In this document: positions 766 to 16,920 of the stretch, in pieces | Layout: each line of letters starts with the position of its first letter | Numbering within the stretch: the first letter of the stretch is position 1 | DNA from: a virus | Virus record (IMG/VR): IMGVR_UViG_3300034073_003048 | Direction: 5' to 3' (one strand) | Length of the DNA stretch: 16,920 nucleotides | Program-made: the position numbers and the translations under genes | The notes under the pieces: generated by a model | What the model was told of the DNA's origin: nothing | What the model saw: the letters and a program-made list of their open reading frames with translations, nothing else | Database searches by the model: none

Positions 766-1042
766 CATCCGCGCCATCCTGAGCCTGCAGCCCATCGAGG
801 CCGAGTGGTCCGGCTGCAGGTTCCGCATCTCGCGGCCGACGCTGGCGGATCTCGTCGAGGCGGTCGACGTGAACGCGAAGAGCCCCGAGAACGCGCGCGC
901 GTGGTGCCTGTACCGGCACTGCCAGGACACGGATGGAAAGCCGCTGTTCGCCGACGTGGCCGACGCCATGGCGGCGCCGGCGGGATTCGCTGCCAAGGTG
1001 GTCCCGCAGATCGAGGCGTTGTACAACGAAGGGGTGGACTAG
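758..1042 (+). CDS. Tail assembly chaperone (gpG-like), 94 aa
   Basis: The GTG start overlaps the upstream stop (GTGCCTGA). It occupies the canonical position between the tube protein and the tape measure. The call is mainly positional. Confidence 0.5.
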   Translation: MPDIRAILSLQPIEAEWSGCRFRISRPTLADLVEAVDVNAKSPENARAWCLYRHCQDTDGKPLFADVADAMAAPAGFAAKVVPQIEALYNEGVD

Positions 1043-1171
1043 GCCGGGACGCGCGCGCGCTGCTCGCGCGTGTCCTGAGGAACAGGCGTGCAGCACCATG
1101 GGAGCGCTCGGTACTTGAGCTCATCATCGAGCTCGACGTGCCGGACTACAAGGCGATCAGGAGAAGGCTCG

Positions 1172-3404: not shown

Positions 3405-4039
3405 TGTACCGCAACCAGTACACCTTCCGCCGCGAGAAGGACCTCGACCGCGCCGCGCGGTTCCGCGAGGAGCCCGCCGGCATCGAGACCCAGCTCATGA
3501 AGGTGACGGAGGCGACCGCCCTGGCGTCGGGCGGTCCGTTCCGGTGGCTGTACACGCTCTACTTCGCCGAGATCGCCGGCAGCCCGAACTACCTGCCGCA
3601 GCTCAGGGCGAACACCTATCCGAACATCGGTTTCTCCGTGTCGGAACTGTCCAACACGGGCAGCTACTACAGCTACGGCGTGGCGAACGGCAACATCCCC
3701 GCCGGCTACCAACCGCGTCAGATCCCGCTGAATACGTACGTACTGGCGGTGCCCCACCGCGCGCAGACGGGAACGCTGTACTGGCTCATCGTCAACACGC
3801 AGGCCATCGACGGCACGTGCGAGGCGCCTCTTGTGGGCGACACGGACTACGGTACGCTTCTGATGCCGACGGCGCTCGATGACGAGTACGGCACCTTCGA
3901 CGCGCCCGAGGGCGACACGGACTACGGCACGATCAACCTCAGCGACTACGGCACGTTCGCCAACCCGACCAACGACGCCGACTACCAGACGATCACGAAC
4001 CCATACACCAATACGGTCGATTACGGAGCACTGGTCTAA
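3404..4039 (+). CDS. Minor tail protein with C-terminal (D/E)YG(T) repeats (211 aa)
   Basis: TGATG overlap at the start. The C-terminus reads GDTDYGTLL..DEYGTF..GDTDYGTIN..SDYGTF..DADYQTI..VDYGAL. Confidence 0.55.
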   Translation: MYRNQYTFRREKDLDRAARFREEPAGIETQLMKVTEATALASGGPFRWLYTLYFAEIAGSPNYLPQLRANTYPNIGFSVSELSNTGSYYSYGVANGNIPAGYQPRQIPLNTYVLAVPHRAQTGTLYWLIVNTQAIDGTCEAPLVGDTDYGTLLMPTALDDEYGTFDAPEGDTDYGTINLSDYGTFANPTNDADYQTITNPYTNTVDYGALV

Positions 4040-4962
4040 TGCCTCTCAAGCTACGCCGCGGAACCAACGCCGACAGGACGGGGATCACGCCCGCCGAGGG
4101 CGAGCCGATCTACACCACCGACACGAAGAAGCTCTACGTGGGCGACGGCACCACCGCCGGCGGCACCGAGATCGGCGGCGGCGGCACGCTCACCGTCGAC
4201 ACGCAGGACTTCACCGCGTCGGGCACCTGGACGAAGCCCGCGAACGCGCTGTGGGTCGAGGTGACCATGTGCGGGGCGGGTACCAATGGAGCGACGGGCT
4301 CGACTGGCGCAGGCGGTTCGGGAGGAAACGCCGGGCGGATCGCGCAGAAAACATTCCTGGCAAGCGCGCTCGGTTCCACGGTTTCCGTCACCTGCGGAGC
4401 ACCCGACGATCTCTACAGCCCTAGCAGCGGTTCCGTTTCCTCATTCGGCACGCATCTCTACGCAGCAGGCGGTGCCAACGGCATTGACCTGTATGGCGGC
4501 AGCACGCCTGAGTTTGTTTCCATTCAGGAGAACATGGGCGCTACTGGCGGTTTTGGGATGTTTGGCACTGGAGGAAATCCCGGACTTGCGGGACACCACG
4601 GAGCCCCAATGGGACCGGCAGCCGGCGGCGGTGGCGCGACATCTGGCGCTGGCGCCGCGGGTGGTTTGGCTGCAACGGGCAACGTGACTTCAGGCAACGC
4701 AATTGCATACGGCGGCGGCGGCGCGGGCGGCGCAAGTGGCACGACGGGTGTCGCGGGCACCGCGGGCGGATACGACACGATCACGGGCTTCGGCCACGGC
4801 GGCGGCGGCGGCGGGCAGGGCACCGCGGGCGCAGGCGGCGCCGGCGGCGCGGGCGTCCGTGGCGGCGGCGGTGGTGGCGGTGGCAAGGGCACGACCGCGG
4901 GCGGCGCCGGTGGCGCCGGCGGCGCGGGATTCGTGCGGGTTCGCACCCTTTGCTTCGGATGA
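4039..4962 (+). CDS. Tail fibre/receptor-binding protein: conserved fibre N-terminal motif plus a glycine-rich domain (307 aa)
   Basis: The N-terminus LKLRRGTNADRTGITPAEGEPIYTTDTKKLYVGDGTTAGG matches the widespread fibre/Mtd-N/HylP-type motif. It is followed by FTASGTWTKPANALWVEVTMCGAGTNG... and long GGxGGAGG tracts. Confidence 0.7.
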   Translation: MPLKLRRGTNADRTGITPAEGEPIYTTDTKKLYVGDGTTAGGTEIGGGGTLTVDTQDFTASGTWTKPANALWVEVTMCGAGTNGATGSTGAGGSGGNAGRIAQKTFLASALGSTVSVTCGAPDDLYSPSSGSVSSFGTHLYAAGGANGIDLYGGSTPEFVSIQENMGATGGFGMFGTGGNPGLAGHHGAPMGPAAGGGGATSGAGAAGGLAATGNVTSGNAIAYGGGGAGGASGTTGVAGTAGGYDTITGFGHGGGGGGQGTAGAGGAGGAGVRGGGGGGGGKGTTAGGAGGAGGAGFVRVRTLCFG

Positions 4963-4965
4963 TCC

Positions 4966-5316
4966 ATGGCACACCCAACGGACAACCCCCAGCGCGACAT
5001 CATCATCGAGAGCGGCAGCACGTTCACCATGGTGGTTACCTGGACGGGCAACGTCTCAGGCCAGAGTTTCGCCATGAAGGGACGCCCTTCCCATGGCAGC
5101 AGCACGGTCGTATTCGAACTGTCGACCCTCGAGGGCGACATTTCCGCTACCCATAGCGGCGGTGAAACCACCATCACCGTCACCATGGCCGCGACCGTCA
5201 CCGCCGGATTCACGGCGCCCCAGTACGGCGTCTACGACCTCGAGGCCACCCTGAGCGGCGTCACGACGCGCATCGCCGAGGGCACCTTCTACGTCACCCC
5301 CAACGCAACCAGATAA
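4966..5316 (+). CDS. Hypothetical beta-rich (Ig-like?) virion protein (116 aa)
   Basis: High GC3. The pattern ...YGVYDLEATLSGVTTRIAEGTFYVTPNAT is common in small phage beta-sandwich domains. It lies next to the fibre gene. Confidence 0.55.
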   Translation: MAHPTDNPQRDIIIESGSTFTMVVTWTGNVSGQSFAMKGRPSHGSSTVVFELSTLEGDISATHSGGETTITVTMAATVTAGFTAPQYGVYDLEATLSGVTTRIAEGTFYVTPNATR

Positions 5317-5625
5317 ATGGCCAAAGAACCAACGCCTACAGGAGGAACAGTGGCACGCTCATCTCTCATCGGAAACGTCTCGGCACCCGTCAGTACGGGC
5401 AGCTTCGCGCAGGTCTCGGCGAATAACGTGGCCGGCGGCGGCACGCTCTACATGGCGGCGACGGCCAACGTTGTCATCCGTTTCTCCACGGATGGTGGAA
5501 CCACGTTCCAGGAGATGACCGTCCTGTCGGCGTGGGGGCCCATCGTCCTGGGCGACATCGATCCCCGTTACATCTACGTCCGCAGCGCCGGCACCGCGAC
5601 CACCGCGCACTTCTGGTACGCCTGA
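5317..5625 (+). CDS. Hypothetical protein (102 aa; alternative GTG start at 5350)
   Basis: ATG 5317 abuts the upstream TAA. However, an in-frame GTG at 5350 has a strong AGGAGG at 5340..5345, so the start is uncertain. Confidence 0.6.
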   Translation: MAKEPTPTGGTVARSSLIGNVSAPVSTGSFAQVSANNVAGGGTLYMAATANVVIRFSTDGGTTFQEMTVLSAWGPIVLGDIDPRYIYVRSAGTATTAHFWYA

Positions 5626-5626: not shown

Positions 5627-5809
5627 ATGGATGTAGCAACGCTCGCCGGCGCCCTGGGCATCATCGCGTCCGTGGTCACGACCACGATGGTTGTCGTTGG
5701 CAAGCTGACGCGCGTCGAGGTCATGCTCGCCGAGCTGCGCGCGACGATGAACCACTACGACAAGAGGCTCGCCGACCTCGAAAGGAAGCACCATGAAAGG
5801 CAACCGTAA
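5627..5809 (+). CDS. Small membrane protein: N-terminal TM helix plus charged coiled-coil tail (60 aa); lysis-associated (i-spanin-like or holin-like) candidate
   Basis: VATLAGALGIIASVVTTTMVVVG is followed by KLTRVEVMLAELRATMNHYDKRLADLERKHHERQP. Confidence 0.5.
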   Translation: MDVATLAGALGIIASVVTTTMVVVGKLTRVEVMLAELRATMNHYDKRLADLERKHHERQP

Positions 5810-5960
5810 GACCACCCTCGCCGGCATCGCCGCCATCCTGACCGCCGCGGCGGGCATCCTGAACGGGTGGCCCGACGCCGTCGACTGGACCGCGGCCGTC
5901 TCGGCGATCATCGCCGGCGTCGGCCTGATCATGGCGCGGGACGCCCAGAAGGGTGATTGA
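5793..5960 (+). CDS. Two-TM small membrane protein, holin-like (55 aa; below the ORF-track cutoff)
   Basis: Read by hand: the ATG is preceded by GAAAGGAAG. Translation: MKGNRKTTLAGIAAILTAAAGILNGWPDAVDWTAAVSAIIAGVGLIMARDAQKGD. It overlaps the previous gene by 17 nt and has high GC3. Confidence 0.5.
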   Translation: MKGNRKTTLAGIAAILTAAAGILNGWPDAVDWTAAVSAIIAGVGLIMARDAQKGD

Positions 5961-6232
5961 ACGTGTACTCACGGAAATCGCGGTCGCCATCCTGCGGCAC
6001 TACGCGCGGCGCGAGCGCGCCGTCGACGCCGACACGGATGGCCGCCGCGCTCGCGCTGCCGCTGCTGTGCGCGAGTGGCTGCGGAGAAACGGTCCTGGTG
6101 AGGCGGGGGACGCCGGTCAGGATCGCTGAGCCCGTCCACGTCTACACGCTCGAAGGCGGCGAGTGGGTGCGCAGCGCGAACCGCGTCGACGTGCGCGGTT
6201 GGTACGCCGTGAGCCCCGAGGAAGTCGAGTGA
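5957..6232 (+). CDS. Putative secreted lipoprotein (o-spanin-like or exclusion-type); start at TTG 5957 or ATG 6038
   Basis: ...TRMAAALALPLLCASGCGE... has a hydrophobic core followed by an ASGC lipobox-like site. TTG 5957 forms a TTGA overlap with the upstream stop. GC3 is very high from 6038 onward. Confidence 0.5.
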   Translation: MNVYSRKSRSPSCGTTRGASAPSTPTRMAAALALPLLCASGCGETVLVRRGTPVRIAEPVHVYTLEGGEWVRSANRVDVRGWYAVSPEEVE

Positions 6233-6909
6233 GCACGTCGCGGTGCTGCTGCGGCGGCGGCGGCCTGCCGGCCTGCGGCGAGTGCCCGTGCAGCGCCAAC
6301 ATCTACAGCGTGCGTTGGTCGGGATCGTACGATCTCATCGACGCGAATCTCTGCCCCGCGTGCGGCAGCAGCAATGTCTTCCGCGCGCCCAACACCACGC
6401 ATTCCGATGGCGCCACGCGCGTGTTGTCCCCCATCGGCATTGGCACGTGCCGCGATGTCTACGCCGAGTATTCCAAGATCCATCCGCAGTACACGCCGCC
6501 TGCATTCTGCAGCGGTTCCTGCACTGGGCCGCAGAACAGTCAAACCAGATCCACCTACACACTGATCAAGCCAGATCAGTTCACTGGAACAAACAACGAC
6601 ATAAACCGATGCGAGTGGCAGGCGAGGTTGGTACTGGCGCAGACGCGTTCCGTCAATTGTTTGTTGACTCCGGTTATCAATGGGTTGTGGAGTCTGGTGG
6701 GACTTTTCCGAAAGGACTACGTGTCGTGCGCAGCTCCTGGCGCCCTGGTGTTCGAAAGGTTTGTGTGGATAACCACCGACGGCAATTTCCAGACGGTGGA
6801 ACTTGCATACAACCCCGGTGATCTGATCGTGCGAGCGGGATGCAACTTTGGCAATAGTGTCGCATACGCCAACATCTACGCCACCGCGGGAACGCTGGAG
6901 ATCCTGTGA
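6229..6909 (+). CDS. Cysteine-rich hypothetical protein (226 aa, 15 Cys), N-terminal CCCGGGG...CGECPC...CPAC cluster; compositionally atypical
   Basis: GTGA overlap at the start. The frame stays open although GC falls to about 47-60% per 60-nt line across 6540..6900, against a clearly higher background. Confidence 0.65.
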   Translation: MSTSRCCCGGGGLPACGECPCSANIYSVRWSGSYDLIDANLCPACGSSNVFRAPNTTHSDGATRVLSPIGIGTCRDVYAEYSKIHPQYTPPAFCSGSCTGPQNSQTRSTYTLIKPDQFTGTNNDINRCEWQARLVLAQTRSVNCLLTPVINGLWSLVGLFRKDYVSCAAPGALVFERFVWITTDGNFQTVELAYNPGDLIVRAGCNFGNSVAYANIYATAGTLEIL

Positions 6910-7186: not shown

Positions 7187-7573
7187 ATGCAGAAGCGGAG
7201 AGCGGTCTCGGTCGATGAATCCACGTACTGGACGCTCGAGGCCATGCGGTTGGAGACGGGTAGATCCGTCCGGCAGATCGTCAAGGAGGCGGTCGCGGGC
7301 TACTCGGTAATGATGGACCTCGCGCAGACCGCGAGGCCACGAAAGGAAACGCGGACATGGGAATCTTTCTCGGCATCTGCGCCATCGCCATCGCGGCCGT
7401 GGCCACCGCCTGGCCCCTCTTCGATGATCGGGGGATCCGATGAGAAGTCACAGCTACACCGAGGACATGGAGCGGCAGGACAACCCGCAGCCGGGGATGG
7501 ATCGGCACCACCGCGAGTGGAACGCCGCCAACGGCGTACGCGAGCCCGCCGCGGACCTCAGCCGGATGGCTGA
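7187..7573 (+). CDS. Ribbon-helix-helix (CopG/Arc-type) transcriptional regulator with a long low-complexity tail (start at ATG 7187 or TTG 7151)
   Basis: KRRAVSVDESTYWTLEAMRLETGRSVRQIVKEAV shows the classic RHH strand-helix-helix pattern. GC3 drops after about 7335, but there is no in-frame stop until 7571..7573. Confidence 0.55.
   Translation: MQKRRAVSVDESTYWTLEAMRLETGRSVRQIVKEAVAGYSVMMDLAQTARPRKETRTWESFSASAPSPSRPWPPPGPSSMIGGSDEKSQLHRGHGAAGQPAAGDGSAPPRVERRQRRTRARRGPQPDG
7357..7443 (+). CDS. 28-aa hydrophobic mini-protein (MGIFLGICAIAIAAVATAWPLFDDRGIR)
   Basis: GAAAGGAAAC is 7 nt upstream. GC3 is 23/28. The stop forms an ATGA overlap with the next gene. It lies out of frame inside the RHH ORF. 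Confidence 0.4.
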   Translation: MGIFLGICAIAIAAVATAWPLFDDRGIR

Positions 7574-7718
7574 GGAGATCCGGGGCAAGCTCATCGACCG
7601 CGTCGGCGCCATCGGGCCCGGCGACCGCGCGTCGGCTCGGACGATGCTGGAGGCCGTGCAGGTCATCAAGGCGCTGCACGACGCCCTCGAGGCGGAACGG
7701 AGGCGCGATGCGCCATGA
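7440..7718 (+). CDS. Hypothetical early protein (92 aa)
   Basis: Very high GC3 throughout and an ATGA start overlap. No motif recognised. Confidence 0.75.
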   Translation: MRSHSYTEDMERQDNPQPGMDRHHREWNAANGVREPAADLSRMAEEIRGKLIDRVGAIGPGDRASARTMLEAVQVIKALHDALEAERRRDAP

Positions 7719-7887
7719 CATCGTGGCGCGACTGCGGAATTGTGATTGTATTCCGCATTGCCTATGCGCCGAAGCCGCCGACGAGATCGAACGGCTCCGC
7801 AAGGAACTTGCCGCACGTTGCGGCGACGGTGGGGCCGGTGCACATACCGCCGGCCCCACCGAACACTTCATCCCGGAGGCCCTGTGA
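7708..7887 (+). CDS. Small hypothetical protein (59 aa, below the ORF-track cutoff) with ARLR...EAADEIERLR motif
   Basis: Read by hand: GGAGG is 4 nt before ATG 7708. Translation: MRHDIVARLRNCDCIPHCLCAEAADEIERLRKELAARCGDGGAGAHTAGPTEHFIPEAL. The stop overlaps the next GTG (GTGA). Confidence 0.55.
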   Translation: MRHDIVARLRNCDCIPHCLCAEAADEIERLRKELAARCGDGGAGAHTAGPTEHFIPEAL

Positions 7888-8363
7888 GCACCCAGCTGAC
7901 CGTACGCCGAAAGGCACCCGTGGAGCAGGTCGACGCGCAGCTCGCGCCGATGATGCTGCTCCGCGACACGCTGTCCGTGATCGGGCCCCGCATCATCAAG
8001 GAACATTCCTCGCGGATCGGGGACAAGCAGTACGTTCATGTGGCGGGGGCCACCCTGATCGCCGCGATGTTCGGGCACCACGTCCGCGAGATCGGCGCCA
8101 GGCGCATCGACATCGACGGCGTGGGCGCCTGGGAGGCGACGGTCGAGATCGTCCGCGCCGCCGACGGGATGGTCGTGGGAGGTGGCTCGGCCATCTGCTG
8201 CGACGATGAGAAGATGTGGGCCCAGCGACCGCAGTACGCCCGCCGCGCGATGGCGTCGACCCGCGCGGCCGGCAGGGCGCTCAGGCTGTTCTTCGGTCAC
8301 GCATTCACCATGCTCGGCGACAACGTCGCCACAGTCACACGCGAGGAGATGCCGGATGAATAG
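7884..8363 (+). CDS. Possible Rad52/Sak-like single-strand annealing protein (159 aa)
   Basis: GGAGG upstream of GTG 7884. ...RRAMASTRAAGRALRLFFGHAFTMLG resembles the conserved Rad52-family helix (TDAxKRAL..FG..LG). It lies adjacent to the SSB-like gene. Confidence 0.4.
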   Translation: MSTQLTVRRKAPVEQVDAQLAPMMLLRDTLSVIGPRIIKEHSSRIGDKQYVHVAGATLIAAMFGHHVREIGARRIDIDGVGAWEATVEIVRAADGMVVGGGSAICCDDEKMWAQRPQYARRAMASTRAAGRALRLFFGHAFTMLGDNVATVTREEMPDE

Positions 8364-8760
8364 TGCGACACTGGTCGCGCGCCTGCGGGCGCTGGCCGAC
8401 GAGATCGAGAAGGGCGGCAAGCACGTGCCCGCGCCCGTCCAGGCGGCCGAGCCGCCGTCCCAGTTCGGGGCCCGCACCGTCGAGTGCGAGGTGGGCTACT
8501 GGAAGGTGGGCCCGACCAAGACCGGCAAGCCCATGGGCAGCCTCAGCCCGAGGAGCGAGGACGGCGAGACGGTGTACTGGAAGTGCTTCGACGAGAAGGT
8601 CATGTCCAAGGTCGACCCGCTCGGCAAGGGCGAGAAGATCCGCGTGACGCTCGTCCCGTGGAACGACACCCACCGCATCGTCGACATCGTGCGCCTGTCG
8701 CCCGCCGCTGCACCCGAGCGGCGGTCGACGGGGATCACGGTCGACGAGATCCCCTTCTGA
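8356..8760 (+). CDS. SSB-like protein: small OB-fold-like core with a canonical SSB C-terminal tip (..VDEIPF)
   Basis: GAGGAG upstream of ATG 8356. The protein ends in DEIPF, matching the bacterial SSB tail D(D/E)xIPF. Confidence 0.5.
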   Translation: MNSATLVARLRALADEIEKGGKHVPAPVQAAEPPSQFGARTVECEVGYWKVGPTKTGKPMGSLSPRSEDGETVYWKCFDEKVMSKVDPLGKGEKIRVTLVPWNDTHRIVDIVRLSPAAAPERRSTGITVDEIPF

Positions 8761-8778
8761 GTACCGCCCATTCGCGCG

Positions 8779-8823
8779 GGGCCCGTGCAGCCGTCGGAAG
8801 CTGTGCGGGCCCTTTCCCTTTTT
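8779..8823 (+). terminator. Rho-independent terminator
   Basis: 13-bp stem gggcccgtgcagc/gctgtgcgggccc (2 G-U pairs), 8-nt loop, followed by tttcccttttt. Confidence 0.6.
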
Positions 8824-8837
8824 ACGGAGGCACAACC

Positions 8838-9347
8838 ATGCTCAGACGCGCAGCGCAGCGAATGGCCGATCTGATTCGGGAGGGTGTCGCGCCGGCAGTG
8901 GCCGCGACGATGGCAGCAGAGGAAGCGGGACTGGAGGCGGGGAAGGTGGGCGCCGAGTGCGCGGCCATCCGAGCCGAGATCGAGGCCCAGCGCCGGCTTG
9001 AACTGGGGCAGCTGACGGACCAGCAGGCCCGCGACCACCTCAGGGAGCACCTGGCGACCCGCACCGACATCGACCGCGACATCCGAAGGGTGGCCGGCAA
9101 GGTGTTCTACGAAGTCATGCGCGCGGGCCGAGGCTCTGGCAACATCTCCGAGGCGTTCATCGAGCACGCCCACGACCTCGACGCCGAGCAGAGCGTGCAG
9201 GTCCAGTACCTGCTCGTCCAGCTCTGGCGGAAGTTGCCGCCGGGCTACGACCCGCGGACGCCCAGGAAGGCGACCATCGGCCGCGATTCGTTCATGTGGC
9301 CCGAGATGGAGATGTCGGCGTTCTACAGGTGGATCCCCAATGGATGA
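8838..9347 (+). CDS. Hypothetical helical protein (169 aa)
   Basis: ACGGAGG is 7 nt upstream of ATG 8838. High GC3. It overlaps the helicase gene start by 8 nt. Confidence 0.7.
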   Translation: MLRRAAQRMADLIREGVAPAVAATMAAEEAGLEAGKVGAECAAIRAEIEAQRRLELGQLTDQQARDHLREHLATRTDIDRDIRRVAGKVFYEVMRAGRGSGNISEAFIEHAHDLDAEQSVQVQYLLVQLWRKLPPGYDPRTPRKATIGRDSFMWPEMEMSAFYRWIPNG

Positions 9348-10347
9348 GGCGCCCATCTTCCTGACGCCGCCCGACCTGTCCAAGGGCCCGCCGAGCCTGC
9401 GGCCGCCCGTCGTGGACGGCCTGTTCCGCAGGGGCGAGGTGGTGAACTGGATCGCATCGCCCAAGGTCGGCAAGACGTGGATGCTCTACCGGCTGCTGCT
9501 GGCCATCTGCACGGGCTCGGAATGGCTCGGCAGGCAGGTCACCAAGGGCCGCGTCCTGCTGATCGACAACGAGCTTCACCCCGAGACGGGCCTCCAGAGG
9601 CTCCACAAGGTCGCTACAGGCGTCGGAGCGGATTTGGCGGCCGTGGATACCTCCATGCGGTGCGCGTGGCTCAGAGGGGCATCTGCGGGCCTGGAACAGA
9701 TCGAGGCGGCCGTGAGGTCCGAGCCGAGGGGTACGTACGCCGTGATCGCCCTGGACGCCTTCTACCGGCTCATCCCGAAGGGCACCGACGAGAACGCCAA
9801 CGGCGACATGGTCCAGATCTACAACCACCTCGACCGGATCGCCGCGGCGTCGGGGGCGTCGATCATCAACGTGCACCATGCGTCCAAGGGCGACCAGAGC
9901 CAGAAGGGGACCACGGACGTGGGCTCGGGCGCCGGCGCGATCTCGCGGGCGGTGGACACCCACATCGTCTACCTGCGGCACGCGACCGAGGGGTGCGTCA
10001 CCATGCGGGCGGTCTGCCGCAGCTTCCCGCCGCCCAAGGCGACCGTCCTGCGCGTTTCCCCGCCCGACGTGACCGTCGAGGCCGACTTGGATCCCGATGA
10101 CCTCTGGACGCCCAAGAAGGCCGCCAAGGGCGCCCAGCGCGAATGGACGCCCGAGGAATTCGCCGCCACGTTCATCGACGGCAAGGCGTCCAAGGGCGAG
10201 GTGATCGACCGGGCCGTCGGCTACGGCATCTCGCGCACCAAGGCGAGGGAGATCCTCAAGGGAGCGCTCGACATGGATCTCGCGGAAGCCGTTGTCTCCA
10301 AGGACACCTCTGCGGGGCGTCCCAAGCAGCTGCTTCGAAGGTGCTAA
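9340..10347 (+). CDS. RepA-like (AAA_25/RecA-fold) P-loop NTPase, probable replicative helicase (335 aa)
   Basis: Walker A IASPKVGKTW and Walker B-like RVLLIDNE / AVIALDAF. The IINVHHASKG motif is typical of RepA/AAA_25 proteins. Confidence 0.7.
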   Translation: MDEAPIFLTPPDLSKGPPSLRPPVVDGLFRRGEVVNWIASPKVGKTWMLYRLLLAICTGSEWLGRQVTKGRVLLIDNELHPETGLQRLHKVATGVGADLAAVDTSMRCAWLRGASAGLEQIEAAVRSEPRGTYAVIALDAFYRLIPKGTDENANGDMVQIYNHLDRIAAASGASIINVHHASKGDQSQKGTTDVGSGAGAISRAVDTHIVYLRHATEGCVTMRAVCRSFPPPKATVLRVSPPDVTVEADLDPDDLWTPKKAAKGAQREWTPEEFAATFIDGKASKGEVIDRAVGYGISRTKAREILKGALDMDLAEAVVSKDTSAGRPKQLLRRC

Positions 10348-10355
10348 GATGGGGG

Positions 10356-10382
10356 GTGAATTAATTACCGCGCCCCTATAAA
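10356..10382 (+). promoter_or_regulatory. Candidate promoter (GTGAAT, 15-nt spacer, TATAAA) in the largest AT-rich intergenic gap
   Basis: The 115-bp gap 10348..10462 is the most AT-rich non-coding stretch. TATAAA lies at 10377..10382. Confidence 0.3.
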
Positions 10383-10390
10383 GAGATGGC

Positions 10391-10432
10391 GGAAAATAAT
10401 TCCCGCTCACAAGTTCGCGGGATTATTGTTCC
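10391..10432. promoter_or_regulatory. Imperfect 16-bp inverted repeat (operator, ori or hairpin candidate)
   Basis: ggaaaataattcccgc (10391..10406) and gcgggattattgttcc (10417..10432), giving about 15 bp of pairing with two bulges. Confidence 0.6.
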
Positions 10433-10462: not shown

Positions 10463-10837
10463 ATGTCCGGGATGCAGAGACGGAAAGGCGCCGTCGGCGA
10501 GCGCGAGGTGGTCGCCGAGTTCGACCGCCACGGGATGCTCGCCCACCGCACAGCCCAGAGGATGGGCAAGGCAGGCGACGCAGCCGACGTGCAGGTGGCG
10601 GGGCTCGACGTGCACATCGAGGTCAAGCGCACCGAGAACCTCGCCTGGCGCAAGACCATCGCCCAGGCGACGAACGACGCCCAGGGTGGGCCATGGATCG
10701 TTCTCCACCGGGTGAACGGCGGCAAGTGGATGGTGATACAGCCCCTCGACCAATGGGTGGCCGACAGCGTGGCGGCACACTGCGCCATCGCCCATCGCAG
10801 GGAGCTTATGGAAAGGGCAGCTGGTGAGAGTCTTTAA
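10463..10837 (+). CDS. PD-(D/E)xK nuclease, Hjc-type Holliday-junction-resolvase-like (124 aa)
   Basis: GGGAGGG upstream. The pattern QRRKGAVGEREVVAEF...GDAADVQV...DVHIEVKRTE shows RKG..ER plus D..ExK. Confidence 0.55.
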   Translation: MSGMQRRKGAVGEREVVAEFDRHGMLAHRTAQRMGKAGDAADVQVAGLDVHIEVKRTENLAWRKTIAQATNDAQGGPWIVLHRVNGGKWMVIQPLDQWVADSVAAHCAIAHRRELMERAAGESL

Positions 10838-11102
10838 GCACACCATTCCCTCCATGGGCAAGGTGAAGCAGCCCCTACCGGAAGGCAAGCGGCTCACTGG
10901 GTGCAGGTGGACCATCCTGCGCAACAGGTTCATAAGGGCCAATCCCCTATGTGCCAAGTGTGGCAAGGTGGCCGAGCAGGTGCACCACGTCATCCCCCGA
11001 GCACAACGGCCCGACCTGACCTACGTGTGGGACAATCTCATGTCCATATGCACCGATTGCCACGTGAAAGAGCACAACGCGCACGAAAAACCGCGTTTTT
11101 GA
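10824..11102 (+). CDS. HNH endonuclease (terminase-associated)
   Basis: CAKCG...QVHHVIPRAQRPDLTYVWDNLMSICTDCHVKEH. It lies immediately upstream of the large terminase. GTG 10824 (GAAAGGG upstream) is preferred over ATG 10854. Confidence 0.8.
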   Translation: MRVFKHTIPSMGKVKQPLPEGKRLTGCRWTILRNRFIRANPLCAKCGKVAEQVHHVIPRAQRPDLTYVWDNLMSICTDCHVKEHNAHEKPRF

Positions 11103-11190
11103 GTCAAAAATGAGGTTTTTGCATGGGCATCAAAAAATCGGCAAAAAATGAGGGTGGGGGGGTAGGTTTTGGGCGGTCAGGGGCCCCTAA
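11081..11190. promoter_or_regulatory. Phased A5/T5 tracts plus a G-run: candidate packaging (cos/pac) or terminase recognition region
   Basis: A5 at 11086, T5 at 11096, A5 at 11106 and T5 at 11116 (exact 10-bp phase). A6 at 11132 and 11143. CAAAAA(A)TGAGG occurs twice. GGGTGGGGGGGTAGGTTTTGGGCGGTCAGGGG lies at 11152..11183. Confidence 0.35.
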
Positions 11191-12850
11191 GGTGCCGCCT
11201 GTAAACTCGGAAGCCAAAACACACGCGAAAACGGTCGTTCTTGAGTACAACCGTCGCGTACTGTCGGGATCTGCGCCGAACTCGAAATGGATCTTTGCCG
11301 CGGCGCAGCGTTTCGAGCGCGATCTCGCGCGATCCGACCTGCGGATGAACTGGGACAGGGTGGAGGAGATCGACCAGTTCGTGCGCACGCTGCCGCTGCT
11401 CGACGATTACGCCGGCGAGCCGTTCGTGCTGCACCCATGGCAGGTCTGGGTGACCGCCCAGCTGTTCGGATGGGAGTGGCAGGACGGCACCAGACGGATC
11501 AAGACGGCCATCCTGCAGGTGGCGAGAGGCAACGGCAAGACCACGCTTGCCGCCGCGCTGGCGCTCTGGGAGTTCCTGAGCGGCCCCGGTAGGCGTGTGC
11601 ACGTGATCGCCAACAAGGAACTGCAGGCGCTCATCTGCGTACAGAAGGCGCAAGAGATGCTGCGGGGGCGTGAAACCGACGGCGTGAAGGTGCTCCACAA
11701 CCGCATCGAGGATCGGAACCGCGACTGCCTCATGTCGGCGCTGAAGAAATCGGCCAGAAGCCTGGACGGTCTGACGCCGTCCATGTGGATCGGCGATGAG
11801 GTCGCCGAGTTCGCCGACCGGGACATCCTGGCGAAGCTGGAGACCACCGCGCACAAGCGCCGGAACAGTCTGGGGCTCATCATCTCGACGCCCGCCGCGG
11901 ACGCCGAGGGCTTGTTCAGCGAGAAGGTGGCCGCCGGGCAGCGGATTCTGAGCGGCGAGGAGGAGGACGATTCCACGATGCCACTGCTGTTCGGCATCGA
12001 CAAGGAAGACGATCTCGGCGACGAAGGCTGCTGGGCGAAGGCCAACCCCGCCATGGAGCATGGGCAGCCCAACATCCGCGACCTGAAGACGATGTGGAAC
12101 GCGAAGAAGGGCAGCGCCATCGGGCGCGCCGAGTTCTCGCGCTACATCTGCGCCAGGACGGGCGAGGAGACGGGCAACTGGCTCGACATGGCGCTCGCCT
12201 GGACGCCGACCGAGATCGACTGGGCGGCGCTGCGCGGCCGGCGGGCGTGGCTCGGGCTCGACCTGAGCAAGAACCTCGATCTGTCGGCGCTCGTCGTGGC
12301 CGTTCCCCTGGACGATGGGCGGGTGGCGCTCCGCGGCCACTACTGGTGGCCGTCCGAGGACGTGCGGCAAAGGGAACTGGACTACCGCCTGCCTGTCAGG
12401 AACTGGGCGGCCAAGGGGCACGTGGAGCTTACCGTCGGCCGCGAGATCGACTACACCCGGATCATGGCCACGCTGGAGGCCATCGCCGGCGAGTTCCAGG
12501 TCGCCAGCGTGGCGTACGACAAGTGGGGCGCCAAGATGTTCGCCGAGCAGGCGGTGTCCAAGGGCCTGCCGCTGGAAACCTACTCGCAGGGCATCGCCAC
12601 GATGGGCCCGGGGTGCCAGCTGTTCCAACAGCTCTGGGTGGGCCGCAAGTTCGTCGTGGGCGATGATCCGATCCTCCGCAACGCCTGCGCGGTCGCGGTC
12701 CCGATCCGCGACACGAACGGCAACATCAAGGTGAACAAGTCGAAGCGCACCCACATCATCGACCCGCTGGTGGCGGCCATCATGGCGGTGCACGCCTGGG
12801 GCGGCGAGACGGCGACATCGTGGGAGTTCCTGCGGGACGCCGATATCTGA
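11123..12850 (+). CDS. terL: Terminase large subunit (Terminase_1 type)
   Basis: PFVLHPWQVWVTAQLFGWEW..GTRRIKTAILQVARGNGKTTLAAALAL (Walker A) with a nuclease half following. The first ~25 codons are AT/G-run rich, so GTG 11192 is an alternative start. Confidence 0.9.
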   Translation: MGIKKSAKNEGGGVGFGRSGAPKVPPVNSEAKTHAKTVVLEYNRRVLSGSAPNSKWIFAAAQRFERDLARSDLRMNWDRVEEIDQFVRTLPLLDDYAGEPFVLHPWQVWVTAQLFGWEWQDGTRRIKTAILQVARGNGKTTLAAALALWEFLSGPGRRVHVIANKELQALICVQKAQEMLRGRETDGVKVLHNRIEDRNRDCLMSALKKSARSLDGLTPSMWIGDEVAEFADRDILAKLETTAHKRRNSLGLIISTPAADAEGLFSEKVAAGQRILSGEEEDDSTMPLLFGIDKEDDLGDEGCWAKANPAMEHGQPNIRDLKTMWNAKKGSAIGRAEFSRYICARTGEETGNWLDMALAWTPTEIDWAALRGRRAWLGLDLSKNLDLSALVVAVPLDDGRVALRGHYWWPSEDVRQRELDYRLPVRNWAAKGHVELTVGREIDYTRIMATLEAIAGEFQVASVAYDKWGAKMFAEQAVSKGLPLETYSQGIATMGPGCQLFQQLWVGRKFVVGDDPILRNACAVAVPIRDTNGNIKVNKSKRTHIIDPLVAAIMAVHAWGGETATSWEFLRDADI

Positions 12851-12879
12851 CCTTCGGAGATTAGGACAGGGGCGCGCGC

Positions 12880-14061
12880 TTGCACACGACGGATGATCCG
12901 TGCGTGGCGCTCTCGGACCTCATCGCCAACCTGTTCCGTCGGAACTACTCGACCACGCTGCTGACCGGCAGCGCGATGGCGGTGCCGACGGTTGGTCCGT
13001 TGTCGGCGCTGCGGTACACGCCCGTCTACCGCGCGGTCACGCTCATCTCGGGCGACATCGCGCGGCTCGACTGCGAGCTGTCGGCGCCCGTCGCCGACAC
13101 GCTCTGGCGCAACCCGTCGACCTGGTGGAACGCCTTCGAGTTCCGCCGCGCGCTCCTGATGAACGCGCTGCTGTACGGCAACGGCTTCGCGCTCATCAAC
13201 CGCACCAAGGGCGGCGAGCTGCTGGAGCTGTTCCTGCTCGACAACGACAACGTGTCGCTGGACGTGACGCGCGGCACCCCGACGTACACGATCCGCGGCT
13301 ACCCGGACATCCCCGCGTCGGACGTGCTGCACGTGCGCGCGCCGTCGACGAGCGGCCTGTGGGGCGAGTCGCCCATCAACCTGTGCCGCACGTCCATCCA
13401 GATCCTCGCGTCCCAGGAGGCGATGGCGCTGACGGCGTACCAGAACGCCGGCAACCCGAAGATCGCCATCATCCACCAGCGCGCCATCGATGAGGCGCTG
13501 ATGCAGAAGGTGGAGAACTACTACATGAAGCGCCACGGCGGCGCCGAGAACGCGGGCAAGCCCGTCGTCCTGGGCGACGGCGTCAAGATCGAGCGCATCT
13601 CGTCGACCGTCGACGACACGGGCCTCGAGGCCGCGCGGCGCTACTCCATCGGCGACGTGTCCCGCCTGTTCGGCGTGCCGGCGTCGTACCTCGCCGAGGA
13701 TGTCGGATCGTCGTACGGCTCGATGGAGTGGCTGTCCAGGATGTACGTGGACGGCTGCCTGCAGGCGTGGATGTCGGCGCTCGGCTCCGAGCTGCGCGCG
13801 AAGCTGATGTCGCCGTTCGATTCGGTCGTGTGGGACACCGACGCGCTGATCCGCCCGGGCGTGGCCGAGCAGATGGCCGCGCTCCGCACGGGCGTCGAGG
13901 CGGGATTCCTGACGCGGAACGAAGCCCGCGCTCGGCTCGACCTCGAGCCCCTCGAGGGCCTCGACGAGCCCACGCTCGCGCTCAACGTCGGCACGGGCGG
14001 CGGCAGCACCAACATCGGCGAGGACACGTCCGCGTCGGAGGGTTCACCGAATGATTTCTAG
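12880..14061 (+). CDS. Portal protein, HK97 family
   Basis: Size, position after terL, and typical motifs (..ALRYTPVYRAVTLISGDIARL.., ..NGFALI.., ..YQNAGNPK..). Start at TTG 12880 (AGGGG upstream) or GTG 12904. Confidence 0.85.
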   Translation: MHTTDDPCVALSDLIANLFRRNYSTTLLTGSAMAVPTVGPLSALRYTPVYRAVTLISGDIARLDCELSAPVADTLWRNPSTWWNAFEFRRALLMNALLYGNGFALINRTKGGELLELFLLDNDNVSLDVTRGTPTYTIRGYPDIPASDVLHVRAPSTSGLWGESPINLCRTSIQILASQEAMALTAYQNAGNPKIAIIHQRAIDEALMQKVENYYMKRHGGAENAGKPVVLGDGVKIERISSTVDDTGLEAARRYSIGDVSRLFGVPASYLAEDVGSSYGSMEWLSRMYVDGCLQAWMSALGSELRAKLMSPFDSVVWDTDALIRPGVAEQMAALRTGVEAGFLTRNEARARLDLEPLEGLDEPTLALNVGTGGGSTNIGEDTSASEGSPNDF

Positions 14062-14605
14062 GCGCGCCATGGGCGAGCTGGAGCAGGGCGACGGGCGGCA
14101 GCTCGTCGGCATCGCCGTGCCCTACAACCGCTGGTCGAACGAGATCACCGAGCCGGGAGTCCGCGGCACGTTCCAGGAGCGCATCGCGCCCGGCGCCTTC
14201 GGCGACCTCGCCGATTCGGACATCAAGCTGCTCTGGAACCATGAGCCCGGCGCGCTCCTCGCGCGCACGAAGAGCGGCACGCTCCGCATCAAGGACACCG
14301 CGAAGGGCCTGCGGTTCGACGCGGACCTACCCGAGACCACGCTGGGGAACGACGTGCGGGCGCTGCTCGCGCGCGGCGACCTCACGGGCGAGATGAGCTT
14401 CGGCTTCTACGCCGAGGCCGACGAGTGGAACGACAAGCGCACGCTGCGCACGGTCACGAAGGCACGGCTCGTCGAGCTGTCCGTGGTCGTGGACGCAGCG
14501 TACGGAGACCGCACAAGTTCGTCGCTACGGAGCGTTTCCGAGCGCGACAGGATGGCACGCGCGCTTCGACTGCGCGAACTGAAAGGACTGATGAAATGGA
14601 TCTGA
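14051..14605 (+). CDS. Prohead maturation protease, HK97 (S78/U35) family
   Basis: ..GIAVPYNRWS..ERIAPGAF..IKLLWNHE..GEMSFGF.. GGAGGG is 8 nt upstream, and the gene overlaps the portal stop. Confidence 0.85.
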   Translation: MISRRAMGELEQGDGRQLVGIAVPYNRWSNEITEPGVRGTFQERIAPGAFGDLADSDIKLLWNHEPGALLARTKSGTLRIKDTAKGLRFDADLPETTLGNDVRALLARGDLTGEMSFGFYAEADEWNDKRTLRTVTKARLVELSVVVDAAYGDRTSSSLRSVSERDRMARALRLRELKGLMKWI

Positions 14606-15867
14606 AGATGAAGATGGAGGAGCGCAAGAAGCTCCTCACCGACATGCAGGCGCTCAACGACCGCAAGGACTTCGGCAGCCTGGAGCGCGAGCAGTGGGAC
14701 CGCATGGACGCCCGCTACACCGAGCTCGACCGCGAGATCGAGCAGGCCCAGCGCGCCGCGCGCCTGGACGCCGAGCTGCGCAAGCCCGTCCATGAGATCG
14801 CCCCGCTGGCCGTCCGCGCGGCCGAGAAGGCGGTTGCCGCCGACTTCTCCGCGTCGGCCGAGTACCGCGCGGCGTTCGCCAAGGCGCTCCGCACCGGCGA
14901 CATGGCCGAGATCCGCGCGCTCAACACCGGCAGCAGCAACGCTCCCGTGCCCGTCGATATGCAGCGGCGCATCTGGGAGCTCATGATGAAGGAGACCCCG
15001 CTCCGCGGCCTCGCGCGCGTGTTCAACGTGGCGACGGACCAGCAGATCACCGTCGAGACGGCGATCCCCACCGGCTACCTGGTGGACGAGTCGACCACGA
15101 CCACCGACGGCTACGCATCGCCGACGAGCACGGTCACCGAGTCCACCGGCACCTTCGGCCGCAAGACCATCGGCGACTTCACCTACGCCGTCCGCTCGAA
15201 GGTGTCGTACCAGGCGTACAACGACTACATCAACGGCGGCAGCTACCTCGCCAACAAGGTCGCGCAGGCGCTCGCCCAGACCGAGGAAGGGTACCTGATG
15301 ACCGGCGACGGCTCGTCGAGCGCCACGGGCAACCCCGCGCAGCCGACGGGCGTGGTCACCGCCATCAATGCGGCCGACAACAAGTTCACCTTCACCGGCG
15401 GCTCGACCGGACAGGGGTGGACGGGCCTCACCGCGGACGCCGTGATCGAGACCGCGCACCTGGTGAGCCCGCAGTACCGCCGCGGCGGTTCGCTGCGCTG
15501 GATCATGGGTGACACGGCGGCCAAGGAGATCCGCAAGCTCAAGGACGGCTCCAACCGCTACCTCTGGCAGGTCTCCGACAACGTCGCCGAGGGCCTCACG
15601 AACGGCATCAACGGCAGCCTCTACGGCATCCCCGTGGTGATCTCGCAGTTCATGCCGACCGCGACCACCGCGGCGTCGGTCGCCTTCATCGTCGGCGATT
15701 TCTCCAACGTCGAGATCTACGACCGCGGCCCGGTCGAATTCATGCTCGACCAGTACACCGACCTGGTGAAGCTGAACGTGTTCCTGCAGACGTGGAAGCG
15801 TTCGGATCTCACCGTCATGACGGGTGCCGCGGGCTACCGCCCCTTCGCGCACGCCGAGTTCAAGTGA
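14596..15867 (+). CDS. Major capsid protein, HK97 fold, with N-terminal coiled-coil delta domain (423 aa)
   Basis: ATG 14596 follows GAAAGGA and overlaps the protease stop. The N-terminus MDLKMKMEERKKLLTDMQALN... is followed by a typical HK97-family body. Confidence 0.85.
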   Translation: MDLKMKMEERKKLLTDMQALNDRKDFGSLEREQWDRMDARYTELDREIEQAQRAARLDAELRKPVHEIAPLAVRAAEKAVAADFSASAEYRAAFAKALRTGDMAEIRALNTGSSNAPVPVDMQRRIWELMMKETPLRGLARVFNVATDQQITVETAIPTGYLVDESTTTTDGYASPTSTVTESTGTFGRKTIGDFTYAVRSKVSYQAYNDYINGGSYLANKVAQALAQTEEGYLMTGDGSSSATGNPAQPTGVVTAINAADNKFTFTGGSTGQGWTGLTADAVIETAHLVSPQYRRGGSLRWIMGDTAAKEIRKLKDGSNRYLWQVSDNVAEGLTNGINGSLYGIPVVISQFMPTATTAASVAFIVGDFSNVEIYDRGPVEFMLDQYTDLVKLNVFLQTWKRSDLTVMTGAAGYRPFAHAEFK

Positions 15868-15884
15868 GAGCATCTTTCCCCATG

Positions 15885-15916
15885 GGGTTTGCCGCCGAAA
15901 GGCGGCAGACCCTTTT
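15885..15916 (+). terminator. Strong stem-loop with GAAA tetraloop and T4 run directly after the capsid gene (terminator/attenuator)
   Basis: gggtttgccgcc-gaaa-ggcggcagaccc forms a 12-bp stem (one G-U), followed by tttt. Confidence 0.55.
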
Positions 15917-15918
15917 CC

Positions 15919-16437
15919 ATGTCGATCCCCCTGAGCACAATCAAGACCGCGCTGAAGATCGACTACAGCGACGATGACGCCGACCTGATCAGGCTCAGGG
16001 AGACGGCGACGGCGTTCGTCGAGAAGCGCACGGGCCTCGCGCTGCAGCCCCGCAGCGAGGCTCTGTACCTGTCCTGGTGGACGGACAGCCTGATCCCGGT
16101 GGCCCCGTACACCGGAATCACGCACGTCCGCTACCAGAACAGCACGAACACCCAGACCACGATGCCGTCGGGCGACTACTGGATCGACCAGACCGACGGG
16201 CCGCTGAACCTGATCAGGTTCCTGGAGCACCCCGAGATCTACGAAGGCACGGCGATCACCGTGACCTACACCGTGGGCTACAGCAACATCCCCGACCCGC
16301 TCGTCCACGCGATGATCGCGCTCGTCGGGCACTGGTACAACAACCCCGAGGCCGCGCAGCCCATCGGCCTGCAGACGGTCCCGATGTCGGTCGACGCCAT
16401 TATGGACCTCTACTCGGTCAGGAGCCAGCTCCGATGA
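15919..16437 (+). CDS. Head-tail connector/adaptor (gp6-like, Phage_connect_1 type)
   Basis: The N-terminus MSIPLSTIKTALKIDYSDDDADLIRLRETATAFVEKRTG is the typical signature of this family. It lies after the capsid gene. Confidence 0.7.
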   Translation: MSIPLSTIKTALKIDYSDDDADLIRLRETATAFVEKRTGLALQPRSEALYLSWWTDSLIPVAPYTGITHVRYQNSTNTQTTMPSGDYWIDQTDGPLNLIRFLEHPEIYEGTAITVTYTVGYSNIPDPLVHAMIALVGHWYNNPEAAQPIGLQTVPMSVDAIMDLYSVRSQLR

Positions 16438-16766
16438 TCTCGGGCGGCGTCCTGTCCCACGTGGCGACCAGGCTCGCCGCCAGCGAGGCGCAGGACGCGC
16501 TGGGAATGCGCACGGACGAGTGGACGGAATCCGGCACATTCCGGTGCGACCTGCGGAACGACTCGACCACCGAGCAGCAGTACGCCGACGGCGTGGTCGT
16601 GGTCCGTTCCTGCGAGGTCCGCGCGCGCTGGCAGGCGGTGCAGAACGTCGGGCTCACCGAGCTCGACCGGCTCGCGGTGCGCGGGCGCACGCTGCGGGTG
16701 CAGTCGATCCGCAACCTGGACGAAGCCGACCGCGTCGCCGTCATCCTCTGCGAGGAGATCACCTAA
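16434..16766 (+). CDS. Head closure/head-tail joining protein (110 aa)
   Basis: ATGA overlap, AGGAG upstream. Size, position and the ..RTLRVQSIRNLDE.. pattern fit SPP1 gp16/HK97 gp9-type proteins. Confidence 0.5.
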   Translation: MISGGVLSHVATRLAASEAQDALGMRTDEWTESGTFRCDLRNDSTTEQQYADGVVVVRSCEVRARWQAVQNVGLTELDRLAVRGRTLRVQSIRNLDEADRVAVILCEEIT

Positions 16767-16920
16767 TGGCGTCCATCGAGTCCGCCATCCGCGCCATGCT
16801 GATCCGCTCGACGCTGCTGTCGGCATCCTCGCCCGTCGACGTGCCCGACGCCCGCGTCACGCACGGCTACCGCCTGCAGTCGAGCATCCTGCCCGCCGTG
16901 ACCTTCGAGGTGGCGTCGAC
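16766..16920 (+). CDS. Tail terminator/tail completion protein (DUF3168-like), N-terminal part; continues at 1..380 across the circular junction (135 codons in total)
   Basis: ATG 16766 overlaps the TAA of the upstream gene (TAATG), with GAGGAG 8 nt upstream. The frame runs MASIESAIRAMLIRSTLLS... straight into ORF 3..380. It sits between the head-closure and major tail genes. Confidence 0.55.
   Translation, partial: MASIESAIRAMLIRSTLLSASSPVDVPDARVTHGYRLQSSILPAVTFEVAS
16794..16920. repeat. Exact 127-bp terminal direct repeat, copy 2 (identical to 1..127)
   Basis: Same as copy 1. Unique length is therefore 16,793 bp. Confidence 0.97.

Follow-up and report, generated by a model that had tools for sequence, protein, structure and literature searches.

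Does a stretch of DNA shorter than 17 kb that appears to carry a full set of HK97-type head, neck and tail genes represent a complete phage, or is it a piece of a larger genome, a gene transfer agent (GTA), or a satellite of another phage? This question is raised by the IMG/VR virus record IMGVR_UViG_3300034073_003048, a sequence of 16,920 nucleotides that we analysed at its full length and refer to as the window. An initial annotation, made without database searches, had described it as a miniature HK97- or GTA-style virion module in an autonomous genome. We find that the window holds the complete genome, 16,793 bp in length, of an uncultured double-stranded DNA tailed phage with a non-contractile tail, which belongs to a new family of uncultured relatives. 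Taken as a whole, including the full mechanism of packaging and assembly that we propose below, we hold this reading with high confidence. The window has a G+C content of 66%, every convincing gene lies on the plus strand, and a single packaging, head, neck and tail operon accounts for 11.2 kb, or two thirds of the genome.

The first line of evidence concerns the genome as a unit. Bases 1-127 of the window are an exact copy of bases 16794-16920, and this terminal direct repeat is an assembly overlap, so that the unique circle measures 16,793 bp. The end-to-start junction is read through contiguously in four other members of our collection (L001, L004, L010 and L021), and an independent ENA assembly of the same phage gave a contig of 16,773 bp at 174x coverage. 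Among relatives, L026, whose capsid protein is 56% identical, carries an overlap of 141 bp at its termini, which leaves 16,564 bp of unique sequence, and it has a sister contig of 16,562 bp; full-length genomes of the family cluster at about 15.6-17.5 kb. One could argue that the window is instead an incomplete or faulty assembly of a larger phage genome and that its circularity is a repeat artefact, given that a capsid gene identical to that of the window is present on a contig of 30,094 bp (L022; JGI 3300034072, Ga0310127_001219). However, this contig turns out to be a head-to-tail concatemer of 1.8 units in which the gene order repeats with a period of exactly 16,793 bp. Furthermore, independent ENA and JGI assemblies of lineages down to 51% capsid identity reach maximum lengths of 15.3-17.5 kb, and many contigs span exactly from the left to the right cohesive end (cos) described below. 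Searches with the capsid, a 313-amino acid (aa) tail protein, the large terminase (TerL) and the HNH endonuclease yielded no family contig longer than 17,457 bp, the concatemer aside. The overlap, the concatemer period and this size limit rule out the larger genome that the initial annotation had named as the finding that would undo it, and we give the fragment reading virtually no credence. Together with the sizes of the relatives, the overlap and the concatemer period also bear out the central claim of that annotation, namely a miniature but complete HK97-type virion module within a self-contained genome of less than 17 kb. The L022 concatemer itself fits either replicating concatemers or cos ends that were joined within the sample.

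The ends of family contigs reveal where this unit is cut. To collect family loci, we relied on profile scans with TerL and HNH; a scan of IMG/VR with the bare 14-nt motif introduced here gave mostly chance matches, with family members making up 2 of the 120 matches listed. This motif, GGTGCCGCCTGTAA, lies at the junction between the HNH and terL genes (11191-11204) and is kept in every lineage that reads through this junction, although the flanks have diverged. Left ends are found immediately after it: of the 80 TerL loci, 57 have their first base no more than 130 nt from terL (for most, no more than 40 nt). A stringent criterion left at least 19 contigs, spread over several lineages, whose first base lies 0-1 nt past the motif, and many more share the homologous start. 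Right ends are found immediately before it, as 15 contigs stop 50-120 nt past HNH and eight of these terminate exactly in G(G/C)TGC, which corresponds to the opening five bases of the motif; six of the eight measure 14.8-17.4 kb. These recurrent contig ends constitute a defined cos site, and the phage genome is packaged as a defined unit with HNH at its right end and terL at its left end, which is the layout of HK97-type cos phages. A text search did not find the motif itself in the papers that it covered.

With 11195 as the last base of right ends and 11205 as the first base of left ends, both lack the nine bases CGCCTGTAA (11196-11204). End-repair during library preparation removes 3' overhangs, and the loss of the same nine bases at either end fits the end-repair of a 9-nt 3' protruding cohesive end. 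From the pattern of contig ends and this library chemistry, we infer that the motif reads as GGTGC followed by a 9-nt 3' overhang, CGCCTGTAA. Ahead of it, at 11086-11173, the window carries AT-rich inverted and direct repeats (AAAAACCGCGTTTTTGA and TCAAAAATGAGGTTTTT; AAAAATGAGG twice) followed by a run of G at 11152-11173, which sits approximately 25-45 nt upstream of the motif. Relatives show the same type of repeat and a G-run ahead of their cos motifs, making this region a candidate cosB-like site for protein binding. As a separate observation, several relatives (L024/L025, L232, L235, L267 and L268) possess two to three perfect DnaA boxes (TTATCCACA, in direct and inverted orientation) in the interval from HNH to the G-run, a place where the window lineage has inverted repeats of the AAAAACCGCGTTTTTGA type (11086-11120). 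These boxes could mark an origin or a site for a host factor. The window itself contains one DnaA box, no more than expected by chance.

Both genes that flank the cos site have clear family assignments. The 82-aa HNH endonuclease (10854-11102, with the start taken from the JGI gene call; Pfam HNH, E 3e-11) is the last gene before the right genome end. It is kept 90-130 nt upstream of the motif in all lineages that pass through the junction, the distance in the window being about 90 nt, and is presumably the partner of the terminase in cos cleavage. The open reading frame (ORF) at the start of the interval given in the initial annotation (10463-10837) is a different gene and encodes a resolvase-like nuclease of 124 aa (PHROG 244, RusA-like resolvase, E 4e-13; weak PDDEXK_15 match, E 0.009) that belongs to the replication and recombination module and not to the virion. 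TerL (552 aa, 11192-12850) matches both Pfam TerL_ATPase (E 6e-21) and TerL_nuclease (E 6e-33). Its start codon appears to be a GTG inside the cos motif: in each of the eight loci examined, the complete TerL ORF (544-558 aa) reads in the frame of this GTG (11192 in the window), no canonical start was found between the cut and the conserved N-terminal block of TerL in the window or in L024, an in-frame TAG immediately precedes the GTG in L024 and L026, and the JGI gene caller picks the same position. On these grounds TerL probably begins with M-P-P-V at 11192. We also considered an ATG at 11123, which would give a protein of 575 aa, and rejected it; it falls in the AT-rich and G-run region ahead of the cos motif and is closed by stops in L024 and L026.

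With this start, the first 13 nt of terL, with its start codon and first four codons, lie upstream of the cos cut and hence on the opposite end of the virion DNA, such that an intact terL would exist only once the ends are joined. If so, expression of the terminase would be tied to end-joining. A literature phrase search for genes that span a cos site, which was not exhaustive, returned one D29 transcript study and no described precedent. No ORF is present between the cos site (11204) and terL, and no TerS match was obtained anywhere in the genome using Pfam, PHROGs and NCBIfam; small terminases are often unrecognisable by sequence, and a divergent TerS may be encoded elsewhere in the genome. 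In the packaging mechanism that we propose, the terminase, presumably together with the adjacent HNH protein as in HK97-type phages, would cut concatemers at GGTGC and again after CGCCTGTAA, yielding linear virion DNA of unit length that carries HNH near its right end and terL from its left.

Downstream of terL, the head and neck genes follow in close succession. A portal protein of 393 aa (12880-14061; Pfam Phage_portal, E 2e-60) is followed by a prohead serine protease of 184 aa (14051-14605; Peptidase_S78, E 4e-32), whose gene is separate from that of the capsid, and by an HK97-fold major capsid protein of 423 aa (14596-15867; Phage_capsid, E 7e-43). The Pfam match of the latter begins at residue 118 and is preceded by a charged stretch of approximately 115 aa, which is presumably a delta or scaffold domain. 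The neck comprises a gp6-like head-tail adaptor of 172 aa (15919-16437; Phage_connect_1, E 8e-8), a head-completion or stopper protein of 110 aa (16434-16766; Phage_HCP, E 3e-8), and a 135-aa protein resembling a terminator or tail-completion protein. The first 51 codons of this last gene occupy 16766-16920 and the gene continues at 128-380; at the start of the window its reading frame is open from position 3 to 380, bases 1-127 being the duplicated overlap. JGI likewise calls a gene of 135 aa, which forms a conserved family (A6) with one relative that weakly matches Tail_completion_gp17 (E 0.05); a family-profile search of PDB sequences gave nothing significant. Position, conservation and the weak match suggest a terminator role. 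We propose that the capsid protein with its delta-like domain would assemble on the portal, that the separate S78 protease would mature the shell, and that the adaptor, head-completion and terminator-like proteins would couple the head to a very short tail.

As the contig is circular, the terminator-like gene and the tube, chaperone, tape measure and fibre genes are contiguous with the head genes. The initial annotation had placed the entire module at 10463-16920; this interval does contain the resolvase-like gene, the genes from HNH to the head-completion protein and 51 codons of the next gene, but the tail half lies across the junction (16766 through to 380) and at 382-4962. The tail tube protein (127 aa, 382-765) is identified by Pfam Phage_tail_2 (E 6e-9) and a PHROG major tail match (E 2e-11). 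Next is a 94-aa protein (758-1042) that, by its position and conservation, is a putative tail assembly chaperone G; it is 94 aa long in every lineage and matches no family in Pfam, PHROGs or NCBIfam. The 129-nt gap that follows the chaperone gene encodes, in the -1 frame (1033-1179), a conserved peptide, GLGRDARALLARVLRNRRAAPWERSVLELIIELDVPDYKAIRRRLDEL, which persists in lineages whose chaperones are only 45-55% identical. The peptide is kept in six of seven loci, with a variant form in L026; stops in L026 and L028 leave roughly the last five chaperone codons as the place of the shift, and the G+C content of third codon positions (GC3) favours the -1 frame over 1033-1179. A canonical XXXYYYZ slippery heptamer is not visible in the last five codons (ending in GAAGGGGTGGACTAG). 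The conserved -1-frame peptide points to a programmed frameshift that would produce a G/GT chaperone pair, an arrangement that is classic for such genes. We rejected a fusion of G/GT to the 206-aa protein encoded next, as conservation of the -1 frame ends at the ATG of that gene and the arrangement is missing in L026.

The 206-aa protein (1172-1792) is very basic (pI 11.2) and carries an invariant GVGWRxHFxELGxHSW...GKGWKxGxYHRGxG motif. In every lineage its gene sits between the chaperone and tape measure genes, an unusual site for a gene of the neck or tail-completion type. Weak matches to PF04883 (E 0.011) and TIGR01725 (E 0.02) suggest that it is probably a divergent HK97 gp10-like morphogenesis protein; a PDB profile search gave nothing significant, and the AlphaFold2 (AF2) model, built from 5 sequences, was too poor to use (pLDDT 48). 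The protein that follows (225 aa, 1789-2466) resembles a tape measure in its position, length and composition. It ranges from 223 to 231 aa across all lineages, has an invariant MKLPTxNxD N-terminus and a hydrophobic core rich in glycine and alanine, and returned no match in Pfam, PHROGs or a PDB profile search. No longer tape measure candidate exists among the ORFs of the genome.

Two proteins are candidates for the tail tip. For the first (313 aa, 2463-3404), which we consider a putative distal-tail or baseplate protein, AF2 gave a confident model (pLDDT 92) of a fold that is specific to the family: all 35 homologues are found inside it, a fold search of the PDB yielded nothing below E 0.03, with weak matches mostly to tail tube, Dit and baseplate proteins, a family-profile search of PDB sequences yielded nothing significant, and BFVD contains only uncharacterised proteins labelled 'uncultured Caudovirales phage' (E 1e-13, TM up to 0.65). 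The second (211 aa, 3404-4039) is a candidate tip protein by position and matches nothing in Pfam, PHROGs or NCBIfam; its conserved N-terminal 140 aa, ending in NTQAIDGxC, are followed by a variable acidic C-terminus. In the window lineage only, this C-terminus includes a 70-aa acidic extension rich in tyrosine and aspartate with DYG repeats, which may be a lineage-specific receptor-binding addition. The glycine-rich tail fibre (307 aa, 4039-4962) matches Pfam Mtd_N (E 5e-13) and PHROG 863, tail fibre assembly (E 9e-7), and alanine plus glycine make up 45% of its residues. The parts that the initial annotation had listed for head, neck and tail thus all exist, and their Pfam matches lie far beyond chance, except that the terminator, chaperone and tape measure are without a significant family match.

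Next to the 225-aa tape-measure-like protein of this phage can be set that of the gene transfer agent RcGTA, which has 216 aa and accompanies five tube discs and a 49-nm tail (PMC7296036). The comparison supports the short tail that the initial annotation had predicted. A tape measure specifies about 0.15 nm of tail per residue. By this rule, 225 aa would give approximately 34 nm of tube and, combined with the RcGTA figures, five to eight tube discs and a whole tail of approximately 40-50 nm. By analogy, we expect a tube of 30-35 nm built from 5-8 rings. In assembly, the 127-aa tube protein would build around the tape measure with the assistance of the G/GT chaperones, and the tail would end in the family-specific tip proteins and the glycine-rich fibre.

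The size of the head can be estimated from that of the genome. An allometric model (Luque et al., PMC7762592) gives T=4 heads a mean genome length of 17.98 kb (95% interval 13.2-24.5 kb) at 49.6 nm, and T=3 heads a mean of 11.78 kb (95% interval 8.1-17.1 kb). Since 16.8 kb is far closer to the T=4 mean than to the T=3 mean, the head is most likely a T=4 shell of approximately 50 nm, which supports the earlier prediction of a capsid below T=7. A capsid of another geometry, whether an isometric T=3 shell, a tightly packed prolate head (phi29-like T=3, Q=5) or an underfilled head of the T=7 type usual in HK97-like phages, is the less likely but still credible alternative, given that the T=3 interval, at its upper end, still takes in 16.8 kb and that the nearest solved capsid protein, that of RcGTA, forms T=3-derived shells. 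A further point for it is phi29, which fits 19.3 kb into a T=3 shell of prolate shape. However, this genome would fill a T=7 head to only about 40%, and cos-packaged heads are not stable in this state, with lambda requiring about 75% or more. The clustering of all family genomes at the lengths given above also speaks against these geometries and in favour of the T=4 shell.

The initial annotation had pointed to a resemblance to RcGTA, which raises the question of whether the window derives from a GTA or a GTA-derived chromosomal cluster that packages host DNA. RcGTA is chromosomal, packages approximately 4 kb of random DNA into an oblate T=3-derived head and is unable to package itself (PMC7296036). 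Among solved structures, it is the closest match for two proteins of our phage: the capsid, for which RcGTA (E 2.7e-19, approximately 25% identity) ranks ahead of HK97 gp5, and the tube, for which RcGTA is the only significant match of the family profile in the PDB (E 1e-4). The tube proteins are also similar in size (127 aa here and 137 aa in RcGTA), as are the tape measures, and the gene order from TerL to the tape measure is the same (protein names per PMC7296036), except that an extra gp10-like gene precedes the tape measure here. The resemblance has measurable support in the capsid, the tube and tape measure length. Other comparisons speak against a link specific to GTAs: the capsid scores higher against ordinary phages (127 bits, approximately 30% identity) than against RcGTA, and the portal is nearer to PDB chain 8cez (E 5e-24) than to the RcGTA portal (E 7e-10). 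We take 8cez to be the HK97 portal, based on its pairing with HK97 capsid entries among the PDB matches of the capsid. For RcGTA g12-g15 (distal tail, hub, peptidase and megatron), no Pfam match was obtained on the products of 2463-3404 and 3404-4039 or on their relatives; with no Pfam family on the tip proteins, nothing links them to these GTA components.

Judged by sequence comparison, the affinity to GTAs thus appears weak and no stronger than that to ordinary phages. Moreover, the 16,793-bp unit is closed, has a specific cos site and is recovered as linear contigs of unit length; genes for replication and recombination (AAA_25 and the resolvase) are part of it, and a scan of 185,579 species genomes found no chromosomal copy apart from two short contigs of metagenome-assembled genomes (MAGs). 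The initial annotation had already set the element apart from a GTA on the grounds of its replication genes and closed packaging unit, correctly so, and the GTA explanation is in practice refuted. The element works as a small HK97-type phage with a GTA-sized tail. An idea that we regard as speculative and rather improbable is that the family consists of free-living phages that package themselves and are akin to the stock that gave rise, by domestication, to RcGTA-type agents. Its members would then be minimal cos siphophages whose tail has the length of a GTA tail, whose capsid and tube are GTA-like, whose T=4 head has barely enough room for the 16.8-kb genome, and whose terminase gene works only once the cohesive ends have been joined. 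If true, the family would exemplify a GTA that has kept the ability to package itself, and structural studies would gain their first T=4 HK97-type siphophage.

A second system for comparison is HK97 itself. Shared features include an HK97-fold capsid (PF05065) with an N-terminal delta-like region, a separate S78 protease, a PF04860 portal, gp6-like, HCP-like and gp10-like neck proteins, an HNH gene that adjoins the terminase where the genome ends, and cos ends that fit 3' overhangs. In HK97, the overhang is a 10-nt 3' extension, and the HNH protein gp74 is required for cos cleavage. The two phages differ in genome size (16.8 kb here compared to approximately 40 kb), in the predicted triangulation (T=4 compared to T=7), and in the tape measure (225 aa compared to roughly 1,000 aa). 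Unlike HK97, the window has no small terminase gene between cos and terL, and its terL would begin ahead of the cut; the two are also distant in sequence, with HK97 gp5 matching at about E 1e-3.

Phages of this size have been described among actinobacteriophages. Documented phages of 14-18 kb include Microbacterium cluster EE, Arthrobacter clusters AN, AX and FE, the CW and DM clusters of Gordonia, and Rhodococcus phage RRH1; PhagesDB holds 109 phages under 20 kb, and 77 isolates have been predicted to be T=4 (PMC7762592). The small actinobacteriophages are siphophages with approximately 25 genes, with structural genes to the left and lysis genes, regulators and HNH at the right end, and cluster EE has no integrase, none having been recognised in the present phage either; EE is lytic, a lifestyle that we presume here as well. 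The shared size class, one-strand layout, left-hand structural genes, right-end HNH and high G+C could be taken to mean that the window belongs to one of these described clusters. However, a megablast search with the full window found no match among 50,697 phage records, and TerL and capsid reach at most 29-31% identity to any phage record. A described cluster above 70% amino acid identity, which the initial annotation had named as another finding that would undo it, was not found. In addition, small actinobacteriophages all fuse protease, scaffold and capsid (PMC7302621), whereas protease (14051-14605) and capsid (14596-15867) are separate genes here. Membership of a described small-genome cluster is accordingly very improbable, and the window is better regarded as a lineage of its own.

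The window also falls within the 13-25 kb band of genomes assigned to T=4 tailed phages (PMC7762592). Its genome is almost as small as that of a tailed phage with complete head, neck and tail genes can be, and it may serve as a minimal complete model as well as a compact system in which to ask how an HK97-fold protein with a delta domain selects T=4. To our knowledge, the solved T=4 examples are podophages (P68 and C1) or satellites (P4 and SaPI1), and we know of no solved T=4 head from an HK97-type cos siphophage that has a protease and delta domain of its own. The surprise that the initial annotation expressed at such a small genome was overstated, because siphophages of 14-18 kb are already well known. 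No established principle is overturned by a further family of this kind, as both such phages and T=4 predictions are already in the literature.

Relatives of the window are numerous among uncultured viruses. We identified 50 homologues of the capsid protein, whose identity ranges over 33-100% and is 51% or above in 49 cases, and a TerL profile scan of IMG/VR gave 139 relatives; in total, the family comprises more than 139 IMG/VR contigs drawn from many samples. No cultured relative was found, the best amino acid identity being 32% or less. Among 185,579 species, each represented by one genome, a portal scan returned nothing, and a scan with the capsid profile returned only the two short MAG contigs mentioned above, which are labelled Bifidobacterium and delta-proteobacterium and are probably mis-binned. 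Together, these data indicate a new, undescribed and widespread family of uncultured phages inside a known class of miniature siphophages, phages of 14-18 kb having been known before; the family probably merits its own taxon.

Given that such a small genome might depend on another phage, we asked if the window could be a helper-dependent satellite or capsid-forming island that borrows lysis, small terminase or other functions. Neither a small terminase, an endolysin nor an integrase was recognised in Pfam, PHROGs or NCBIfam, and the T=4 capsids of the satellites SaPI1 and P4 match this genome size. Phage satellites (P4-like, PICI/SaPI and cf-PICI), however, carry a partial virion set together with an integrase, whereas the window encodes every structural class, tube, tape measure, tip and fibre included, and gave no integrase match. 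TerL, HNH, a cos site and a replication helicase are likewise its own, it is found as a free unit-length contig at 174x coverage, and no integrated copy was found in the 185,579 species genomes. A divergent lysis cassette likely follows the tail genes (see below), and, as noted, small terminases frequently escape recognition. We therefore consider a satellite improbable and retain the reading of a self-contained phage.

Several points nonetheless weigh against parts of this reading. Since no small terminase, endolysin or integrase is recognised, the full autonomy of the phage is presumed and its route of lysis putative. The T number and tail length are extrapolations, the particle being known here from its genes alone; 16.8 kb also lies within the upper edge of the T=3 interval, and a prolate head is a minority alternative. 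The polarity of the overhang was drawn from assemblies made with unknown library methods rather than from reads. The tape measure, chaperone and terminator labels have no significant family match and derive from position, conservation and weak matches, and the genome scans yielded no host.

The remainder of the genome lies between the tail fibre and HNH genes. Directly after the fibre, a beta-sandwich protein of 116 aa (4966-5316; PHROG 1084, E 8e-13; weak LtfC match, E 5e-4) is probably fibre-associated, and a 91-aa protein (5350-5625), conserved in relatives and with a weak match to PHROG 38670, tail fibre (E 7e-4), is possibly the last gene for the tail or fibre. Three small ORFs follow the tail genes: one at 5627-5809 encodes a single transmembrane segment with a charged tail, one at 5793-5960 encodes two transmembrane segments, and one at 6038-6232 encodes a 64-aa protein with a lipoprotein-type signal (..LLCASGC). 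These look like lysis genes of the holin and spanin type, and the presence of holin-like and lipoprotein genes after the tail genes makes a divergent lysis cassette likely. An AAA_25 helicase-like protein is encoded at 9340-10347 (E 4e-29, with PHROG primase/helicase matches), ahead of the resolvase gene. Scans of the window for tRNA genes and Rfam families gave nothing.

Replication modules appear to be swapped among lineages that share the virion module, as seen when L026-L029 are compared to positions 7700-10400 of the window: some of L026-L029 encode an ERF recombinase and a protein of 674-680 aa, and the window encodes the AAA_25 helicase-like protein together with genes that have no assignment. 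At 6229-6909, the window has a putative coding ORF for a cysteine-rich protein of 226 aa with lower G+C, a weak GC3 signal and no family match, a position at which relatives carry a different gene of 308 aa or 674-680 aa. Finally, an uncalled ORF is present at 7187-7400, where GC3 supports coding in frame to approximately 7400, and its N-terminus (KRRAVSVDESTYWTLEAMRLETGRSVRQIVKEAV) resembles what we take to be a ribbon-helix-helix DNA-binding domain.

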